DNA from: a phage
Direction: 5' to 3' (one strand)
Length of the DNA: 64,000 nucleotides
Assembly (NCBI GenBank): GCA_012549035.1
Contig: GCA_012549035.1_4805.1
In this document: piece after piece, positions 20,203 through 48,340 of the stretch
How the letters are laid out: the number at the start of each line of letters is the position of its first letter
How positions within the stretch are numbered: position 1 is the stretch's first letter
Program-made: the position numbers and the translations under genes
Notes under the pieces: generated by a model
The model's input: the letters and a program-made list of their open reading frames with translations, nothing else
The model's database searches: none
Told to the model about the DNA's origin: nothing

Positions 20203-22578
20203 TCAACCTTGCTTCGGTGAATTAGTAGGATTGTTGAGTGCTCCATATGCTTGAGAGCAATCACCCTTCAACCACTCCTTGAATGAGTTTACATCCAATT
20301 CGTGGATTGAGTCAAATCCATTCCAACCGTTACCAAATGATGCTTGATAAGCTTCTTTCGCTTCTTCTGCTGAATCGAATCCAAGCATACATTTGTGTTC
20401 ATCAAACTCGCCAGAGTAGTTATCGTTTTGGTTCACGATAAAAACTTTCGGTGACTTCAGATTTGGACCCACAAAGCAGTCGACTTCATCGCCGTCCGCG
20501 CCCTTGGTGCCCTTGATGAATCCGTAGTGGTGCGGCATCTTGACTGCCCATTCACCGTCAAGGCTGTTTCCTCTACGGATGCTGTTGCGAGGATTCTCAA
20601 TCCCAAGAATCAGTCCATGCAACTTCATCTTAGGTAATGATGCTGCGTCCATCTTTCCAACGTTGTGTCGTAAGTTTACGACATTACCTTTGACGCTTGG
20701 AAGGGTAGACGGTTGCACCGACCGTGAATCTTTTTGAGGGTCAAAATCCACATCCTGACCTTCTTTCAGGTAGTAATCCGCAATACCCTCCAGACCTTCT
20801 TTCAACTGCGTTAGGACATCAACCTGATGGCTTGATTCGTCATCGGTATCGTCCATGTTGATTTCAACAGGTGCTCTGTCAGGGTTTTCCGCCAACTCAC
20901 CACGCGCGGCACCCTCTGGCATAATACCTGTTTCGCTATAGAACTGGCCGCCCATCTTAACGACATCAGCTTTCGCCTGTTCAATATCGGCCTTACCTTG
21001 CAAGACTTCACCAGCAGACTTGCCAAGCAATGCCATATTCTCTGGAGACATCCCTGGGGTTTCTTCTGCTGCGTCTTCCGGCAGACGGTTGTAGCCGCTG
21101 TTTTTGTCGTCTTTGATGCGGTCGCGCTCTTCATCAGGAGAAATGACGCCAGCATCAATAAGAGTTTTGCCAGTGTTGGCTCGCTTATCATTGATTTCTG
21201 CAAGTTGAGTAGCAGTAAGTGAGCCAACTGGTTCCCATGCAACCTTAACATCGACATCCACCCCTTCTGATTTGAGAAGGATTTTGTAATGGCGGTCGAG
21301 AATTTTTGTCAGGTCATGCTGCTGGCACGTTTCCAACTCTTCGTGATAGCTGACCATCTCGAATTCACCAGTGGCATTAAAGCCTTTTGGCGAAGTCCCA
21401 AGCAGTTTGGTCGACGGAACTTTTGCGATTGCGGCCACCAGCTGGTACTGGTTCATGATGATGCTGTCGAAGTCTGACAAGTTGATGTCGAACTGGTCCA
21501 TCTCTTCTTTTTGGCCAAGCACTTTGACTGCATAGTTGTCGCGATACTTGATCCACATCATCAGACGTTCTGCAAAAGACCGCTCATTGGCAATCGCCTT
21601 GTCAACGTCGGTCCGCAGCGTGGTTGTACGCTTGGACATCGCCAGCAATGGCGCTTCGTTAGCGGTACGTTCAGCGGCATAGATGCGTTCATAAATCTGC
21701 TGAGTCAGAGGAATGCCGCCGTAAATATAAGTTGGCTTGAGAATATCAGCTGGCTCATCATTGCGCAAGATGATGAGGTGACTGCGATGATAACGTTGTC
21801 CGCTGATCACCCAGTATTCTGGATCATAGAAGTGCTGTGATGCAGGGTCTGCGGTATTTTCAGACGTCAAAAATGGCATCATCCAATAAGGGTCAACCTG
21901 AATGATTCCCTTGTAAGACCCCTTTGTCACACCATCAATGTTAAAAGGCTTGCTGTAATATTCTGGGTCATCGCTACGCACATCAAATATGATGACGCGG
22001 ATACCAAAAATATTTTTGAATCGTTCGGCTTCAACTAAGTGCTCTTTGATATTAAATTCTTTATCAATTTGCTTTAGGCGTTCGCTTGCCTGCACTGACA
22101 ATTCTGACTCAGAACTGGATTTGACTTCCCAACCTTTACGGACCGCATCGCGGCCTACCATGGAACACGCCTTGTTCACCAGCCAATGCTGTGCGATGAT
22201 GGCACAAGCTTGATAGCCGATGAATGACTGTGACAAATACCAGTTTTGAAGTTGAATAGGTACTGTGTATGGGTTGACCTGCCCTTCTGAACTGATGTTC
22301 TTCAAGGCATTATCCATAACTTTTTTGGATACTGTTGCGGAATCGACTGAACGACCTTTTATGATAGCAACACCGTCGCCATTAATATCAGGCTCATATA
22401 AAGGGAAGTCATCAACCGTTTTAAAGGTCGGTCGATTGCTTTCAGTCTTTTCCCAGCGTTGACCGCTGCCGCGCCTTTCAAGGCGTTCAAACGGTGCCAA
22501 TGGGTCGCCTGGCGGCATCTCCGCTGGTTCGGCTTCTGGTTGCGTCTTCTCCCAGAGTTTTATGCCAAGAATTTTCAT
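20203..22578 (-). CDS. Portal protein with C-terminal inorganic-pyrophosphatase-like extension
   Basis: About 790-aa ORF between terminase and MuF genes; AGGTGG SD before ATG at 22578; C-terminal HHYGFIKGTKGADGDEVDCFVG fits family I PPase signature D-[SGDN]-D-[PE]-[LIVMF]-D-[LIVMGAC]. Confidence 0.6.
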   Translation of the reverse strand: MKILGIKLWEKTQPEAEPAEMPPGDPLAPFERLERRGSGQRWEKTESNRPTFKTVDDFPLYEPDINGDGVAIIKGRSVDSATVSKKVMDNALKNISSEGQVNPYTVPIQLQNWYLSQSFIGYQACAIIAQHWLVNKACSMVGRDAVRKGWEVKSSSESELSVQASERLKQIDKEFNIKEHLVEAERFKNIFGIRVIIFDVRSDDPEYYSKPFNIDGVTKGSYKGIIQVDPYWMMPFLTSENTADPASQHFYDPEYWVISGQRYHRSHLIILRNDEPADILKPTYIYGGIPLTQQIYERIYAAERTANEAPLLAMSKRTTTLRTDVDKAIANERSFAERLMMWIKYRDNYAVKVLGQKEEMDQFDINLSDFDSIIMNQYQLVAAIAKVPSTKLLGTSPKGFNATGEFEMVSYHEELETCQQHDLTKILDRHYKILLKSEGVDVDVKVAWEPVGSLTATQLAEINDKRANTGKTLIDAGVISPDEERDRIKDDKNSGYNRLPEDAAEETPGMSPENMALLGKSAGEVLQGKADIEQAKADVVKMGGQFYSETGIMPEGAARGELAENPDRAPVEINMDDTDDESSHQVDVLTQLKEGLEGIADYYLKEGQDVDFDPQKDSRSVQPSTLPSVKGNVVNLRHNVGKMDAASLPKMKLHGLILGIENPRNSIRRGNSLDGEWAVKMPHHYGFIKGTKGADGDEVDCFVGPNLKSPKVFIVNQNDNYSGEFDEHKCMLGFDSAEEAKEAYQASFGNGWNGFDSIHELDVNSFKEWLKGDCSQAYGALNNPTNSPKQG

Positions 22579-22740
22579 TGTTAACGCCACCTGACAGTGA
22601 AAGGGAATCAATCTATATTATAAATATTCATGTGTTTGTAAGCAAATGATATGTATGGTGATCATAAATAGTTCATAAAATATTTTGCTTTTGTATCATT
22701 TTGAGTTATATTTTAGTTAACCAAACGAAAGGAGATTGAA

Positions 22741-33536: not shown

Positions 33537-34010
33537 CTAGTGGCGGGAGAATTGCTCACCCTCTTTGGCCGCCTCTCCAAAATCCTTGTAGAAATCGTCC
33601 ATGGAACGGCCCATTTTACTATTGCCATTCTCATCAATCATCGTGATGCCGTAGATGATATTCAGTTCACGAATGGCATTAAGCTTGGCTGATGCCGCGA
33701 CTTCTGGATCACGCACAAGCTTCACTAAATTGTGAATGGAACTCTTTACACTCCACAATTCCTTCAATGGCATCTCTTCCATACGCTTTTTGTAGCGCAT
33801 CTTGTAGTACGGATTGCGTTGCGTGCAGAGGATTCGCTGGCCAGTGTAGTTATCGGTCGCAACCTCCATGCCAAATACTAGTGCAAAAGCTGCGCGCATG
33901 TCATGGCCCTGAATAACAAGGTCAATGAACTCATCGAATAATGCCTGATTATGCTCTGCAAATCGCGGGTCTTCAAAGTCTTCAGGCATTGCTACATAAT
34001 CTTGACTCAT
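33537..34010 (-). CDS. terS: Terminase small subunit-like protein (putative)
   Basis: About 157 aa from ATG 34010 (MSQDYVAMPEDFEDPRFAEHNQALFDEFIDLV...); N-terminal HTH-like segment and ..AKLNAIRELN.. recall Terminase_2-type small subunits by memory; track N-terminal extension rejected. Confidence 0.45.
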   Translation of the reverse strand: MSQDYVAMPEDFEDPRFAEHNQALFDEFIDLVIQGHDMRAAFALVFGMEVATDNYTGQRILCTQRNPYYKMRYKKRMEEMPLKELWSVKSSIHNLVKLVRDPEVAASAKLNAIRELNIIYGITMIDENGNSKMGRSMDDFYKDFGEAAKEGEQFSRH

Positions 34011-34062
34011 AGTGCAAATCCCATAGTGCAAATTAATAGTGTGAATTATACAATGATTGAAC

Positions 34063-34091
34063 ATTATATTCAAGTGCAGATTGATGTTCAA
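34063..34091 (-). promoter_or_regulatory. Sigma70-like promoter for terS-like gene
   Basis: Minus-strand TTGAAC, 17-nt spacer, TATAAT; 5'UTR carries the tandem ATTTGCACTAT motifs. Confidence 0.45.
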
Positions 34092-34237
34092 ATTGGCTGT
34101 AAACGTACATAAATCATAGTGCTGAATGAATATCGGACCGTGGTGCGTGGTGTACTGTTTGATACGTATAAAAGAAATCCATCCCTTTCGCCGCTTGTTA
34201 TGCAAATCAATGACTTAGCCGCTGCTGGCTGGTTGAA

Positions 34238-34513
34238 GCGTATCATGACGTATCATCCGTATTGCCGCAAGTCTTTGTTTTTACTTATATCTTACGGATA
34301 ATACGTTAAATATATAAATTAACATAAGTATGAGGATGTAGAAAAAAATTAATTTAAATTAATTCAAAATGGAGTTAATTAATTTTTGAAATAATTCTGG
34401 TTACAATAAGGAAAAATGGCGTATCATCCGTATCATCCGTAAGATTCAGTGTACAAATCCAGGCGCGGCGCACCCTAGCGCCATGATACGGATAAAAACC
34501 TATCCGTAAGAGT
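34238..34513. repeat. Iteron cluster R2 (GATACGGAT / ATCCGTATC 9-bp units) flanking AT-rich tract
   Basis: GTATCATGACGTATCATCCGTAT, TTACGGATAATACG, 29-bp GCGTATCATCCGTATCATCCGTAAGATTC (34419-34447), inverted pair TACGGATA-N6-TATCCGTA; AT-rich block 34305-34410. Confidence 0.6.
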
Positions 34514-34741
34514 GTACGCTTCAAGCAAAGAATCCAGGCGCGGCGCGGCTTTCGCCACCACACACCACGGTTCACTCTCCAAAATCCGCACACTAAATTC
34601 CAAAATCCAATGCTCATACTCCAAAAATAAATCAAAATTTCCATTTTATTTATTATTTTCATCCACAATATCCTAAATTCTATCCGTATCAACCATGCCT
34701 CAACCCACCACTATTCACGCCACTCACTTCAAAATTTCCAT

Positions 34742-34772
34742 CGAAAACAACAAAAGGTCGCATAAAGCGACC
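34742..34772 (-). terminator. Intrinsic terminator ending minus-strand early operon
   Basis: Minus-strand GGTCGC-TTTAT-GCGACC followed by TTTTGTTGTTTTCG. Confidence 0.55.
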
Positions 34773-34824
34773 CATTGCACACATTCCATTATTCAAAACA
34801 CGTAAACGAGTGTTCTTTTATCCA

Positions 34825-35364
34825 CTATAATTTAGGCATCAATCCCTTTTCCGTTCTCCTTTTTATCTCGTCTTCTATCATTTTATTGGTTACTCTATAC
34901 CCAATCCTCTCCAATTCCAGCAATACTTCCTTTTGGTATTTTCTTATTTTTACGATGTCGACCGTATCCCTCCAATAAGATAATACCTTCTTAATGACTG
35001 ACTTTTCCATTTTATATCTGGCTGTCGTCATATATTTCATTTTGAAAATAGAGTTGATGGCATCCGTCTTTAACCATTCCTTTCTTAATTCAGGATGATC
35101 ATCCCAAAGAGCAATGGCGAACTCCTGCGGACTTTTGCACCTGCTTTGAAGCTCCTTTATGTAGTCGACCGTTTTCACTTTTCTATCTAAACGCTCGCGG
35201 CAAACGGTGCACTCTTCCTTGAGCAACCAATCGGCCTTCTTGTCAATTTGCAAAGTTGAATTACCATCCCTTTTATACCTGCCGCAAATGCTTATGCCTT
35301 CATCTTTTAAGAAGTAATGCAACTCTTTAGAGTATTTCGCTTTACGCCAAAAGCCTCCCATCAC
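34825..35364 (-). CDS. Hypothetical protein
   Basis: 179-aa ORF, Cys-containing basic protein. Confidence 0.5.
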   Translation of the reverse strand: MMGGFWRKAKYSKELHYFLKDEGISICGRYKRDGNSTLQIDKKADWLLKEECTVCRERLDRKVKTVDYIKELQSRCKSPQEFAIALWDDHPELRKEWLKTDAINSIFKMKYMTTARYKMEKSVIKKVLSYWRDTVDIVKIRKYQKEVLLELERIGYRVTNKMIEDEIKRRTEKGLMPKL

Positions 35365-35783
35365 CCCTCCTTAACGACCCGATAAGCAACAATCTTTGCG
35401 CCAGTCGGGCTTGCCACTGCACCCCAGTTCAAATTATCCGAAGGGACGGCCTCTTTTGATTTATAACCGTTGAGTAATTCAAACATGACCATCTTCCCAG
35501 GCACCGGATTATCGCCACCAAACCACACGGTCCACGCTTCTTCCTTTTGTGCGACAGTCTTCTTGCTTTGTTCGATGATGTCACTAAAATTCTTCACTAC
35601 CAGCTCAGCGGCTTTGATGCACTCGTGGTATTGTTCAATCTCTTTTGTTAGAGAATCATTAAGCTTGAGTAGTGATTCATAGTCCTCATATGCAACAAAA
35701 CGTCCTTCGTGACTTTCTGGAACAGGAGTGATGTCGAAATCTTCTGTCGCCACATCGTATGTCAGATCATAACGTTGTATCAT
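35361..35783 (-). CDS. Hypothetical protein sharing C-terminal domain with 36934..37434
   Basis: C-terminal WTVWFGGDNPVPGK...AYRVVKEG parallels WIEWAGGENPVPGK...AYRVVEE. Confidence 0.5.
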   Translation of the reverse strand: MIQRYDLTYDVATEDFDITPVPESHEGRFVAYEDYESLLKLNDSLTKEIEQYHECIKAAELVVKNFSDIIEQSKKTVAQKEEAWTVWFGGDNPVPGKMVMFELLNGYKSKEAVPSDNLNWGAVASPTGAKIVAYRVVKEG

Positions 35784-36267
35784 TTAACTTCTCCAAAATT
35801 TCAATAGCGATTTGCGTTTGCTTCTCAAGAGCGATACGCAACATGTCAATTTGCAAGTCACGGTGAGCCAGTTCAGCGGCGATGTCCGACTTGCTGTAAA
35901 GTCCTTCGTGAGTCATGGCATAAATGTGGCGCGTATAATAGCCGCCCTCGTCGAGTTGCTCGATGTCACGTTGCCCGACTGCGTATTGTTTATCGGTTGA
36001 TGGCGCTTGGATTTTGATTGATTCGACTTCTTGAAGAGAATAAATTGATGCTGGTCGGTTCTCTTCAAACGTCTTTACTTGGTCAATGCGCTGACACCAA
36101 GATGATTCACCGATTTCAAATCCCCACTGTCCGTGTGTGCTTACCCATGAAGGTTTCTTCTCATACACCCAAATGCTGCCATTAGAATCGCGCGCAACGA
36201 ATCGTGCACGAGCGTCTATTTCGTATTCTTTACCTTCGAACTTGATGCGCTGTCTATTGTTAGTCAT
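35767..36267 (-). CDS. Hypothetical protein
   Basis: 166-aa ORF. Confidence 0.5.
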   Translation of the reverse strand: MTNNRQRIKFEGKEYEIDARARFVARDSNGSIWVYEKKPSWVSTHGQWGFEIGESSWCQRIDQVKTFEENRPASIYSLQEVESIKIQAPSTDKQYAVGQRDIEQLDEGGYYTRHIYAMTHEGLYSKSDIAAELAHRDLQIDMLRIALEKQTQIAIEILEKLNDTTL

Positions 36268-36596
36268 GATGCATCCTTAGTTGGATAGAATTTAGGGTTG
36301 TTCTTATAGAATGCCTTGAGCCATGCCTTTGCTTCTGCGATGCTGCTGAACTCTTCCTTGGAGAGTCCGGTGCGGTCCTCGCCTGCGACCTTGAAATGGA
36401 TGCGCACCTTGAGCCGAAGGTTGGTTGCTCTCGCGTAGTGGCCTTCATAGCCGTGATGGTCGAGGCTTACGATTGCGGCAAGCAGCTCGCAGTCTTCTTT
36501 ATCGGGATTGCCGCTGTAACAAGTCGGCCAGCCGCGACGTTGGAATGACCTGTATTGGCCTGTTGGCTCAGGGTCCACGTACCATTTCAATTTCAT
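36264..36596 (-). CDS. Hypothetical protein
   Basis: 110-aa ORF, ATGA-type overlap. Confidence 0.5.
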   Translation of the reverse strand: MKLKWYVDPEPTGQYRSFQRRGWPTCYSGNPDKEDCELLAAIVSLDHHGYEGHYARATNLRLKVRIHFKVAGEDRTGLSKEEFSSIAEAKAWLKAFYKNNPKFYPTKDAS

Positions 36597-36934
36597 TTAA
36601 CCTTCTCCAATTGGAATCTTGTTTCTGGAAAGCCTGCGACAAACATGTCACGACCCTCGACATCACGCTTCACGAACCAACGCATGCCGTTGACTACCGT
36701 GAAGACAATTTGCCTTCCATCAATAATAAGTCCTTTTGCCTCATAAAGCAAATAAGTCTGACCGACTTTGAAGCTCAATATGTCCTTGCTTGTGCTGGTG
36801 CACTTGAGCCGCCACTGGGTGAGATTGGATTCACTCGCCTCGATGTCAACAACCTTACCGCGCAGCGGCGATGTGCGTTGAATCTCTTTCATTTGCTCGT
36901 CGAACGTTAGCTCACGGCCTTCTTGCTCTTCCAT
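36593..36934 (-). CDS. Hypothetical protein
   Basis: 113-aa ORF. Confidence 0.5.
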   Translation of the reverse strand: MEEQEGRELTFDEQMKEIQRTSPLRGKVVDIEASESNLTQWRLKCTSTSKDILSFKVGQTYLLYEAKGLIIDGRQIVFTVVNGMRWFVKRDVEGRDMFVAGFPETRFQLEKVK

Positions 36935-37434
36935 TATTCCTCCACGACGCGATAAGCGATGATGTCATCGCCGCTTCCAACGTGCTTCCATCTTACTGAT
37001 TGTGAGCCGTAACACCCGACGGACTTTATCCCGCTTCTCATTTTGTACTTGATAATCTTCCCAGGCACCGGATTCTCGCCTCCAGCCCATTCAATCCAAC
37101 CTTCATGAGACTCTTCGGACTTCTTCAATTGCTCATGCTTCTCACCAATGTGGGCAATTGGTTGGTTGCTGTTGTAAAAGAATCCAAGCGCAACATCGTA
37201 GCACGGATGACTATGAGAAAGACAGATGTCATCACACCAAAGCTCCATGGTGCGCGACTTAAGCGTCATGATATTGGTATACCACTCGATGGTGTAGTGG
37301 TCGTTAAGGTTGCCGACGATGTAGAAGTTGCGACAAAAGTGCGAAGCATCGTCAGACTTCTCGCGGCGATAGCTTTTGATTGCGCCAGCCTTTACAGCCA
37401 TTTCCAGTACTGCTTCGAGTTGTTTGATTTTCAT
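36934..37434 (-). CDS. Hypothetical protein (paralogous C-terminal domain)
   Basis: 166 aa; see 35361..35783. Confidence 0.5.
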   Translation of the reverse strand: MKIKQLEAVLEMAVKAGAIKSYRREKSDDASHFCRNFYIVGNLNDHYTIEWYTNIMTLKSRTMELWCDDICLSHSHPCYDVALGFFYNSNQPIAHIGEKHEQLKKSEESHEGWIEWAGGENPVPGKIIKYKMRSGIKSVGCYGSQSVRWKHVGSGDDIIAYRVVEE

Positions 37435-38853: not shown

Positions 38854-39086
38854 TTTGCATACTCCATAGCATATTGCTGCAGCTTAAACGCAGCCTTTTG
38901 TAATTGTTTGTGGCGTTCAAATAACGTCTCACGCTTTTCAGCAGGGCAATCGGCGCGAAGCATTGTTATGGCAACGCTTGACATAGCATTCAATAAAAAC
39001 TGAAAACAAGACACCATTCTCAGCTCATTGCGCTTGTTGAAAGACAACTTACCCAGCGCGGCATTCATAATTGCACCTCGACACAC
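38850..39086 (-). CDS. Hypothetical protein
   Basis: 78-aa ORF. Confidence 0.45.
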   Translation of the reverse strand: MCRGAIMNAALGKLSFNKRNELRMVSCFQFLLNAMSSVAITMLRADCPAEKRETLFERHKQLQKAAFKLQQYAMEYAK

Positions 39087-39382
39087 GATTCACTAGCCGA
39101 GAATCCCCAGCCTTCCAGACCGACTTCGCCGCAACAGCGCACCTTTGCCCAACCAGTCATGAGCCATTGGCGATACTTTTCGAAGTATGTTGGCTTTTCT
39201 GAATAACAATGAACAAGGCCGTCGTCATCAATGGCCACGTAACGCGTCCAAGGCGCAACGGGTACAACTACGTCGGGGTGCGACTCTGGCCAAGGCTTGA
39301 TGTGTACAGCTGTGTTCAAGTCTACGTTTAACACGCTGCCTAACCGCTCGTCTTGCTCCTGGTCGATGCCTAAGTAAATCAT
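39065..39382 (-). CDS. Hypothetical protein
   Basis: ATG at 39382 (MIYLGIDQEQ) after GAGGTGA SD; track extension lies in promoter cassette. Confidence 0.5.
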   Translation of the reverse strand: MIYLGIDQEQDERLGSVLNVDLNTAVHIKPWPESHPDVVVPVAPWTRYVAIDDDGLVHCYSEKPTYFEKYRQWLMTGWAKVRCCGEVGLEGWGFSASESCVEVQL

Positions 39383-39413
39383 AATCACCTCGCTTGTTTG
39401 TCTTGATGAAAAG

Positions 39414-39461
39414 AGTATAAGTATTGATAAAAGAAAAGGCAAGCATTTAGCTCACCTTTTT
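39414..39461 (-). promoter_or_regulatory. Terminator-promoter cassette, copy 2
   Basis: Same hairpin and -35/-10 arrangement as 38154-38201. Confidence 0.45.
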
Positions 39462-46669: not shown

Positions 46670-46829
46670 CTTTCTTTCCTTTGGTGATCAATACCTGCAG
46701 TATAATATTGAGTGATACAAAGTCAACAATATTTACCATTTAGTTCACAATTTCGATTTACTTTGCTTTATACTATATCTGCAATTATACTATCAGAAAA
46801 TATTTCCGCACTAACAAAGGTCGCCTGAA
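46670..46829. promoter_or_regulatory. Divergent promoter region between early minus operon and plus replication module
   Basis: 160-bp AT-rich gap with several TATAAT/TATACT-like hexamers between oppositely oriented genes. Confidence 0.45.
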
Positions 46830-47156
46830 ATGAACGAAAAAGAGACGAAGCAACGCGAACGTGCAACACACGTCGGAATCGTTGAGTCCTTCCTTAATAC
46901 AAGATTGAATTCAAGCCTAACAATCATGCGATTCCTGGGTCAACCAGACAGAATCAAATTTATTTTTGCCGCAAATCCGGTATCGCTGTACATCCCTGTT
47001 GAATCCATGGCGTACTTAGTGCGCGACGAGAAAGGATGGAAGATACCAAACACAACTGTTTTCTTCAGCCATGTTGATGGTGAGATGTTTGAACGAAAAG
47101 AAGATTGCCATTTTATTCCAGTATATCTGGACCTTGAAAGCGTAGTGGAGTTATAA
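46830..47156 (+). CDS. Hypothetical protein
   Basis: 108-aa ORF. Confidence 0.5.
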   Translation: MNEKETKQRERATHVGIVESFLNTRLNSSLTIMRFLGQPDRIKFIFAANPVSLYIPVESMAYLVRDEKGWKIPNTTVFFSHVDGEMFERKEDCHFIPVYLDLESVVEL

Positions 47157-48340
47157 TGAACATTCCAGAATTTAATGATGAGCCAGTGATTCAGTTTAAC
47201 GCGCAACAAATCGACGCCATCGAGAAAGCCGTTGCATGGTACAAGCGATTGCAGGACGGTAAAACGACGAAGCGCGTGTTTTTCATCGCTGGCTATGCAG
47301 GAACTGGTAAAACCTCTATTGCTCGCGAGATTGTGCGCCGTTGTGTCGGTGAGTATGGAGCTATCTATATTGCGCCGACCGGAAAGGCTGCAAGCCGATT
47401 AAAGCAAAAAGGCTGTCGTGGCGCTAAGACCCTTCACCAGTTCATCTATAACGTGCGCGGCGTAAATGACGACAATGAGCCAATCTTTTCGAGAAAGTCA
47501 AAGCTGGATGAAAGGCCGCACCTTGTTGTACTCGATGAAGCGTCGATGGTTGGCGAGTGGGACACAGAGCGCCTTCTTGATCACCGCATCCCTGTCCTGG
47601 CATTAGGCGACATTGGACAAGTCCCTCCGGTAAAAGCCGCCGCCTACTTTACTGAAGATGCCGTTGACGTACTGTTAACAGAAATCATGCGGCAAGGGAA
47701 AGAGTCCAATATAATCCGCGCCTCCTTCTTCGTGCGCCAAGGCAACCGCCTTCCTCCGCGTGAATACGATGACGTCAAAGTATTGGCAGAATCGCCGCGC
47801 GTTACTGCATTGAAGAAATTCATGGGCGAAGATGATCAAATTATTTGCTCCTATAATAGCACCAAAGATAAATGGAATTCATTATTACGGCAAGTGAGCG
47901 GACGTATAACGCCAATGCCAGGAATCGGCGAGAAAGTTATTTGCACCTTCAACCAGCACGGGCCAGGATTCTGTAATGGCGAGCAAGGGATTGTTATTAG
48001 CTATGAGCCAGTGCCGGACTTTGAAAGGGATGAAGATGAGTCGAATGAAATAATGTATGTCAACTTGCGTTCATTGACTGATGGTAAAGATATAAAGGTA
48101 AAGATTAATCCTCTTTCCTTCTCTACTGATCAGGAAGTGCGCAAAGAAGCGCAACGTGCTGTTGGCGGGATGGACTACGGCTATGTCATCACGGTGCACA
48201 AATCGCAAGGCAGCGAGTGGGACAATGTGTGCGTGCTGGAAGAAATCTTGCGCGGCGTTCCGTACTCCAAGATGATGTACACCGCTATCACCCGTGCTAA
48301 GAAGAATCTGACCGTGTACCGTGATTTGAAAGCGCGTTAA
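47156..48340 (+). CDS. SF1 DNA helicase (Dda / RecD-like)
   Basis: Walker A AGYAGTGKTS, motif II VVLDEASMV, C-terminal VITVHKSQGSEWDNV. Confidence 0.75.
   Translation: MNIPEFNDEPVIQFNAQQIDAIEKAVAWYKRLQDGKTTKRVFFIAGYAGTGKTSIAREIVRRCVGEYGAIYIAPTGKAASRLKQKGCRGAKTLHQFIYNVRGVNDDNEPIFSRKSKLDERPHLVVLDEASMVGEWDTERLLDHRIPVLALGDIGQVPPVKAAAYFTEDAVDVLLTEIMRQGKESNIIRASFFVRQGNRLPPREYDDVKVLAESPRVTALKKFMGEDDQIICSYNSTKDKWNSLLRQVSGRITPMPGIGEKVICTFNQHGPGFCNGEQGIVISYEPVPDFERDEDESNEIMYVNLRSLTDGKDIKVKINPLSFSTDQEVRKEAQRAVGGMDYGYVITVHKSQGSEWDNVCVLEEILRGVPYSKMMYTAITRAKKNLTVYRDLKAR

Follow-up and report, generated by a model that had tools for sequence, protein, structure and literature searches.

A small C-terminal module with a conserved frame and anciently diverged central types is shared and shuffled between two genes of a Wifcevirus phage

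The T-shaped tail fibres of Wifcevirus phages combine a conserved N-terminal part with highly variable distal domains that are subject to horizontal exchange (PMC11990801). A locus of related evolutionary logic is described here in a 64,000-nucleotide (nt) stretch of phage DNA (GenBank assembly GCA_012549035.1, contig GCA_012549035.1_4805.1; hereafter the window), in which two minus-strand genes, A (35361..35783, 140 amino acids (aa)) and B (36934..37434, 166 aa), encode a common C-terminal module. In Wifcevirus, the frame of this module (W-x2-W-x-GG-x-NPVPGK ... DIIAYRVV) is conserved and surrounds a centre with at least 8-11 anciently diverged types. The closest comparison in evolutionary logic was with the receptor-binding-domain cassettes carried by these tail fibres, and the evolutionary mode of A and B was alike. 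The tail fibres belong to the virion, are large and bind surface glycans, whereas A and B are small non-structural proteins of a replication/accessory operon, and the unit exchanged in A and B is only ~30-60 aa, unlike the tail-fibre cassettes.

Both open reading frames (ORFs) were present as given in the initial annotation, which had proposed that the two proteins end in a conserved module and differ in their N-terminal halves. Both parts of this proposal held: BLASTP aligned A71-139 with B101-166 with 30/69 identical residues (43%), 62% positives and a significant E-value of 4e-16, and showed no similarity between A and B outside the module. The motif first reported had the correct residues, but its tryptophan spacing required revision, as two residues rather than one lie between the tryptophans; the corrected form is W-x-x-W-x-G-G-(D/E)-N-P-V-P-G-K ... 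I-(I/V)-A-Y-R-V-V-(K/E)-E. The part common to A and B spans ~57-61 aa. Six-frame tblastn analysis with either module identified exactly two copies in the window (cross-match E ~1e-13; next best E>1). The module DNA of the two genes is 57% identical, and sequence comparison showed that a 20-nt run encoding NPVPGK, AATCCGGTGCCTGGGAAGAT, is identical in both copies (35491-35510 and 37055-37074, minus strand).

Gene B, represented by 53 orthologue clusters on 66-69 kb contigs, comprises a globular N-domain, a flexible linker and the module, with its stop codon at 36934-36936. The N-domain (aa 1-100; 37135..37434, minus strand) matches phrog_21861 (E=1e-49), was seen only in Wifcevirus-sized contigs, and was predicted by AlphaFold2 (AF2) to form one helix followed by 8 strands. 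The AF2 model of B had a predicted local distance difference test (pLDDT) score of 83, falling below 50 in the linker (aa 102-110) that precedes the module. A Foldseek search of the PDB with the full-length model returned no analogue (best E=0.29), and PH-like matches for the N-domain (Rtt106, FERM) were of low confidence and not usable. The module copy of B (aa 106-166; 36937..37119, minus strand) is divided into an N-box (37057-37107), a variable centre (36964-37056) and a C-box, IIAYRVVEE (36937-36963).

Gene A, with syntenic orthologues in 9 Wifcevirus relatives, comprises a head, a helical stalk and the module, with its stop codon at 35361-35363. The head (aa 1-35, MIQRYDLTYD...GRFVAYEDY; 35679..35783, minus strand) was delimited by orthologue alignment and by a blastn breakpoint near 35678-35680; it has two allelic forms among the relatives, and a weak phrog_1378 match was noted on aa 9-57. 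The stalk (aa 36-78; 35550..35678, minus strand) has two unrelated allelic forms (ESLLKLN... and AALEAKYSEAQREL...) and is probably a coiled coil, given its weak matches to coiled-coil Pfam families. The module copy of A (aa 79-140; 35364..35549, minus strand) contains an N-box (~35488-35546), a variable centre (35394-35492) and a C-box, IVAYRVVKEG (35364-35393). The A orthologue of phage kaset (L008 4003-4671) has 222 aa, as ~80 additional aa, flanked by a repeated 'EDYAALEAKY' motif, are inserted after the head and before the stalk, and a similar internal duplication of the motif was identified in P0131. The stalk itself grows by repeat recombination in kaset and P0131.

A and B are both members of an uncatalogued 'W-x2-W-x-GG ... 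AYRV' module family, defined here, whose proteins come from phages and prophages. A motif search in other phage proteins, suggested in the initial annotation, was performed with a profile built on the module and retrieved thousands of proteins: when 1.84 billion representatives were searched exhaustively with HMMER, 7,864 proteins reached E<=1e-3, of which 1,669 reached E<=1e-10. Ten positions were invariant in a 12-sequence alignment (W4, W7, G9, G10, P13, W40, I49, A51, Y52 and R53), eight of which (W4, W7, G9, P13, W40, I49, Y52 and R53) were at least 90% conserved in 113 diverse modules. Both copies in the window have all ten residues and scored E ~1e-24 to 1e-28 against the 57-position profile. 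Modelled alone by AF2, the module was compact and mostly beta, with two long and several short strands (pLDDT 87, predicted template modelling (TM) score 0.72), and it is predicted to be an independently folding, Trp-rich domain of ~57 aa. Independently predicted viral proteins in BFVD, all uncharacterised and from very different phages, including WFC, FEC19, FV3, PEi21, ep3, Cronus and phiM12, superposed on the module at TM 0.73-0.92.

The module occurs at any position and in 1-6 copies per protein, including tandem arrays of 2-6, among the best 159 proteins, and free-standing module proteins of 57-80 aa are common. By tblastn, it was found in 187 phage records of many groups. Two of its contexts in other phages are small-ORF blocks that include genes of replication type, one beside DnaT-like, DnaA_C, methyltransferase and HNH genes and the other between a DUF3987 protein and terminase/portal genes. 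A pattern scan of genome contigs returned 4 loci; the back-translated pattern was narrow and uninformative on taxonomic spread. In approximately 12% of the 147 members with the best scores, 1-3 modules are fused to DUF3310 (SaV-like), DUF6378, PF18909 (the dATP/dGTP diphosphohydrolase N-terminal domain), PF04447 or HD, and MazG-like dNTP pyrophosphohydrolase-type domains were the sole recurrent annotated fusion partners in this set. The MazG-like domains (DUF3310/SaV-like, DUF6378, PF18909 and PF04447) are partners of the module elsewhere and not its homologues, and a Pfam scan of A and B found no DUF3310, DUF6378, PF18909 or PF04447. Two long members from metagenome assemblies, P0022 and P0032 (915 and 1031 aa), carry three C-terminal modules after a ~700-aa region with conserved GVELEVY...ERDGSL...GFEVVT motifs, for which no Pfam or PHROG match was obtained; we presume from these motifs a resemblance to amidoligase-type enzymes.

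No named family was found to account for the module. A and B had no relevant Pfam-A match at E<=0.1, and among the 147 family members no Pfam-A family covered the module, the module-only proteins having no Pfam assignment at all. The recurrent weak Pfam matches were rejected as short motif coincidences, extending over 16-36 residues where positions were shown: Tudor_Coilin covered only 16 residues (the DIIAYR strand) in one protein with its position shown, and PP2 and Aca2_YdiL covered 24-36 aa over the W-x2-W-GG box in P0013. NCBIfam contained no profile matching the family; phmmer and hmmsearch analysis of PDB sequences returned no match to the module, and Foldseek comparison of the module model with the PDB gave a best E of 0.17 and TM<0.45. 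PADLOC returned five matches in total, to coiled-coil JetC/LmuB-type models, none of them recurrent. Word-indexed protein searches found short proteins only, without informative names, cluster look-ups gave 'hypothetical protein' only, and in the literature on Wifcevirus and the fusion-partner domains nothing was found about A, B or the module. A possible relation to DUF551-type phage domains was not seen in any hmmscan.

The PHROG database does contain the module. A and B matched phrog_9174, 11995, 16943, 26870, 27780 and 13874 (E down to 2.5e-13), always over the module, and in long multi-domain members the module alone was recognised. These 'unknown function' families are whole-protein clusters rather than a domain definition; the position of the module in them varies, and none has a name, structure or function. 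The module is also like the SH3, Tudor and KOW-like small beta-barrels in its size, mostly beta composition, richness in aromatic residues, repetition and appended position. Foldseek gave no SH3/Tudor barrel match to the module model, its sensitivity being low for a 57-aa domain, and membership of the SH3/Tudor/KOW group is not supported. The module lies outside every named family that could be tested: it is an uncatalogued domain in otherwise familiar modular, shuffled accessory proteins, and not categorically new.

The variation of B is concentrated in the module centre. Across the 53 orthologue clusters, column entropy was 0.04-0.56 bits in the N-domain versus 1.3-1.9 bits in the centre, which falls into at least 8 discrete types, and the module was kept in ~45/53 clusters. 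When 24 A and B modules from ~12 genomes were pooled, they formed 11 clusters at 65% identity. Nonsynonymous (dN) and synonymous (dS) divergence was estimated by the Nei-Gojobori method in nine genomes. The B N-domain showed a dS of 0.1-0.6 and a dN of 0.01-0.12 (dN/dS about 0.1-0.2), consistent with purifying selection. Between types of the module centre, the proportion of synonymous differences was 0.7-1.0 (saturated) and that of nonsynonymous differences 0.43-0.6, whereas within one type (Bas99, FEC19 and Ro157lw) dN was 0.01-0.03 versus a dS of 0.07-0.6. Each of the few types that could be tested is under purifying selection. Saturated synonymous sites between types, together with constraint within a type, indicate old alleles moved by recombination, not recent hypermutation.

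The initial annotation had also proposed domain shuffling of a common effector or interaction module. The shuffling was borne out in two ways: the same module occurs on many unrelated partners in thousands of proteins, and natural variants lack the module, have tandem modules, consist of the module alone or join a B head to an A module. In AV128, exactly the module of B (36940-37119) is missing, with flanks 91-96% identical and a product of 108 aa. Module-less B genes were also identified in Mansfield and in clusters P0211/P0212, and in P0209, P0210 and P0213 B is truncated within the module. As the module has been cleanly lost in natural phages, it is dispensable for plaque formation. The A gene of ECO71P1 carries two tandem modules of different types, and P0001, in which the first six codons of ORF110 (a gene between A and B) are fused to the A linker and module, is a nearly free-standing module. 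The module is a self-contained mobile domain.

The exchange of centre types was traced to homologous recombination anchored in the conserved DNA that codes for the frame. The head, stalk and module of A each have alternative alleles that are combined differently among relatives, with blastn breakpoints at their borders, and the 59-bp N-box of A (35488-35546) is 93-97% identical by blastn in relatives whose module centre is unalignable. Such exchange takes place from phage to phage as well as from one locus to the other within a genome. The latter is illustrated by P0191, which consists of the B N-domain and the B-type 'GWIEW' followed by an A-type centre and the A-type end 'VVKEG'. On the P0191 contigs, the gene order is a 78-aa gene, the chimera and the gene normally next after A. 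The P0191 DNA matches the B locus of FEC19 as far as 3377 and its A locus from 3333 onwards, and the overlap of these alignments places the crossover within 45 nt common to both loci in the N-box. The 20-nt run that is identical in the two copies of the window lies in this box. Relative to FEC19, ~1,576 bp are deleted, corresponding to three genes and the A head and stalk; the gene order in L017/L018 and L019 shows this loss of the three genes between the copies on A/B module recombination. Recombination between the direct repeats thus deletes the three intervening genes and yields a B-head/A-module chimera.

The likeliest reading, which we hold at about even odds, is that the module is a specificity or binding domain, carried on a tether in B and on an oligomeric stalk in A. 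The conserved Trp/Gly/Pro/Tyr-Arg frame would build the fold, and the variable centre would form a recognition surface in contact with a partner that itself varies, most likely a protein of the host or of its defences. In B, the module would hang by the disordered linker from the conserved globular domain, presumed to provide a constant activity or scaffold; in A, it would stand at the tip of the helical stalk, which probably oligomerises and so may display several copies. Frequency-dependent (arms-race) maintenance, rather than drift, would fit the presence of old types that are individually under purifying selection.

Several points weigh against this reading. The PDB sequence and Foldseek searches found no structural or sequence analogue of known function, so that the term 'binding domain' refers to architecture and evolutionary pattern. 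Mosaic replacement is common throughout the gene block, and cassette diversity is by itself no proof of selection for diversity. The within-type purifying selection was estimated from few sequences of ~30 codons, the coiled-coil nature of the A stalk is itself only probable, and the recurrent MazG-like fusions could instead indicate a nucleotide-related role. A broader version holds that the module is a phage 'binder scaffold', a Trp-rich frame with hypervariable loops that occurs singly, in arrays or on enzymes, that recognises, and so inhibits or recruits, variable host or defence proteins, and whose cassettes are kept by frequency-dependent selection and reshuffled through the frame DNA; this we offer tentatively, as a possibility with a smaller chance of being correct.

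The MazG-like fusions lead to an alternative in which the ligand of the module is a nucleotide, a signal derived from one or a nucleic acid, the module acting as an accessory to dNTP-pyrophosphohydrolase-type enzymes and tethering the N-terminal parts of A and B to DNA, RNA or the nucleotide pool. Beyond the fusions to DUF3310, DUF6378, PF18909, PF04447 or HD in ~12% of the 147 best members, the conserved aromatic residues and Arg are potential sites for stacking on, or binding of, a base or phosphate, and module genes lie in replication-gene neighbourhoods. However, a conserved small ligand would leave unexplained why the centres of near-identical phages differ by 40-60% while the types are conserved; the module is near neutral (pI 6.1-6.4), unlike the mostly basic nucleic-acid binders, and neither Foldseek nor the PDB profile search found similarity to known nucleotide-binding folds. 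We regard this role as unlikely. The tolerated loss of the module (AV128, Mansfield, P0211/P0212 and frameshifted alleles) would be expected of a passive structural element, a cap for folding, stability or oligomerisation without a target, whose diversity is neutral mosaicism and whose frame is needed for folding. The entire gene block is mosaic, other shuffled segments included, and the last module codons in the window also encode the Shine-Dalgarno sequence of the next gene, which would fit such a view; yet free-standing modules of 57-80 aa are common and have nothing to cap, tandem arrays contain up to 6 copies and the family 7,864 representative clusters, both of which speak for an independent function, and dN is far below dS within a cassette type. 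A passive cap thus seems rather improbable.

A pattern of old alleles, variants that cleanly lack the module and an otherwise conserved protein would also be expected if the module were a trigger recognised by a host defence system, cassette replacement then representing escape and not a change of target. In some relatives, the module is fused to the SaV-like DUF3310, and SaV is a phage protein that activates AbiV. Wifceviruses also lyse many strains without forming plaques (PMC11990801), as a trigger might predict. Against this, a pure liability should be lost, yet the module is kept in ~45/53 B clusters and duplicated in A of ECO71P1, and no PADLOC or other defence-system link was found; we judge the trigger very unlikely. 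There remains the proposal that chance, low complexity or hypermutation by a diversity-generating retroelement (DGR) lies behind the resemblance of A and B, for which the shortness of the motif could be cited. A chance or low-complexity resemblance was ruled out by the pairwise E-value of 4e-16 together with the thousands of profile matches. The variable regions of DGRs are like the module in joining a conserved scaffold to a hypervariable stretch in a phage protein; unlike them, the module has substitutions that are not adenine-specific and alleles that are old, its diversity arising by recombination and not by mutagenic retrohoming. A DGR target was rejected on the spread of A/B mismatches over A, C, G and T and on the saturated synonymous sites, a reverse transcriptase not having been explicitly searched for. 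The probability of this last proposal is close to nil.

Specificity determinants of host-virus conflict have features that the module shows in Wifcevirus, namely a conserved frame around old allelic centres, gain and loss in clean form, and recombination between loci. The conflict-like pattern of the module is a solid and well-delimited lead, and the mechanism is not surprising. Most genes of phage accessory regions are unannotated 'hypothetical proteins', and one 57-aa unit explains part of thousands of them, in a family missing from Pfam, NCBIfam and the PDB despite being very widespread. If the binding-domain reading is true, the family offers a handle for finding the targets of accessory proteins; if the binder-scaffold version is true, it would make up a widespread but so far unrecognised class of specificity domains acting in the cytoplasm, with a logic like that of the tail-fibre receptor-binding domains. 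Wifceviruses lyse many E. coli strains and plaque on few (PMC11990801), and variable intracellular specificity modules are therefore plausible contributors to productive host range. The locus also provides a base-level example of how repeated domain-coding DNA in one phage genome makes new fusions and deletes genes.

The window is, judging from its sequence, part of a Wifcevirus, a ~68-kb E. coli myophage. The region showed 81-95% DNA identity to Wifcevirus myophages of E. coli/Shigella (ECO71P1, EC150, RCIP0319, FEC19 and Bas99-101), in which the genes under the matches are all annotated 'hypothetical protein', and identical A and B proteins were found on a 68,163-bp contig of an E. coli assembly. 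The window also encodes a terminase, portal, tail fibre, DNA polymerase, Dda-like helicase and primase/helicase. A minus-strand block of ~12 kb, headed by the primase/helicase genes, includes A and B close to its distal end. In consensus scans, a promoter-like site was identified upstream of the primase gene at the start of the A/B operon (46726-46699, minus strand), and a terminator-like hairpin, indicated by the scan only, may close the minus-strand operon one gene past A (34755-34773). The genes between the module copies (35767..36934, minus strand) are ORF113 (36593-36934), ORF110 (36264-36596) and ORF166 (35767-36267), and the gene downstream of A, the last before the hairpin, is at 34825-35364 on the minus strand. 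The 'early' label of the initial annotation was a positional guess, and the distal position in the operon fits either early or middle expression.

A GGAG Shine-Dalgarno sequence precedes both A and B, and the stop codon of each gene overlaps the following start (TGATG and TAATG, respectively), which makes them translationally coupled members of one operon. The final codons of A (AAGGAGGGG TGA, 35361-35372) double as the Shine-Dalgarno sequence of the downstream gene, with the stop overlapping the next ATG, and the final codons of B (GTGGAGGAA TAA, 36934-36948) do the same. In Wifcevirus, the C-terminal 'VVKEG'/'VVEE' residues may be further constrained by this double use.

A second common segment, 'R(F/Y)VA.D..G....Y..KP', was identified in ORF166 and in an ORF at 39065-39442 (minus strand), with 10/27 identical residues (E=7e-5); both match phrog_1972 (E=2e-10 and 1e-21, respectively), and by its sequence this segment appears to be another shuffled unit of the same operon. 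ORF166 is itself chimeric, as its C-terminal half (TDKQYAVGQRDIEQLDEGGYY..., phrog_34533) corresponds to the N-terminus of a different, 130-aa protein of AV128 (L006 4434-4826). Mosaicism at the level of sub-gene segments extends over the entire gene block.

Downstream of the operon, the stretch at ~33900-34800 is AT-rich (GC 0.41 in the 34-36 kb window), has no convincing genes and contains three overlapping promoter-like sites at 34045-34091 (minus strand). The Mansfield record was opened at its predicted terminal-repeat boundary (PMC6753283), and its A orthologue is the penultimate gene of the record. By coordinate transfer, ~33900-34800 corresponds to the end of the Mansfield record, where the boundary of the 3.7-kb direct terminal repeat predicted by its authors lies. 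At the other end of the operon, a divergent pair of promoter-like sites, at 46726-46699 (minus strand) and 47128-47157 (plus strand), bounds 46699-47157. This interval separates the primase operon, of which A and B are part, from the operon of the Dda-like helicase and DNA polymerase, and is likely a control region of the replication genes. Elsewhere in the window, the C-terminal ~125 aa (aa 660-785) of a portal-like protein (20203-22611, minus strand; phrog_4660/phrog_146) also match domains of very large polyvalent or DarB-like virion proteins (phrog_10089, 37402 and 30335).

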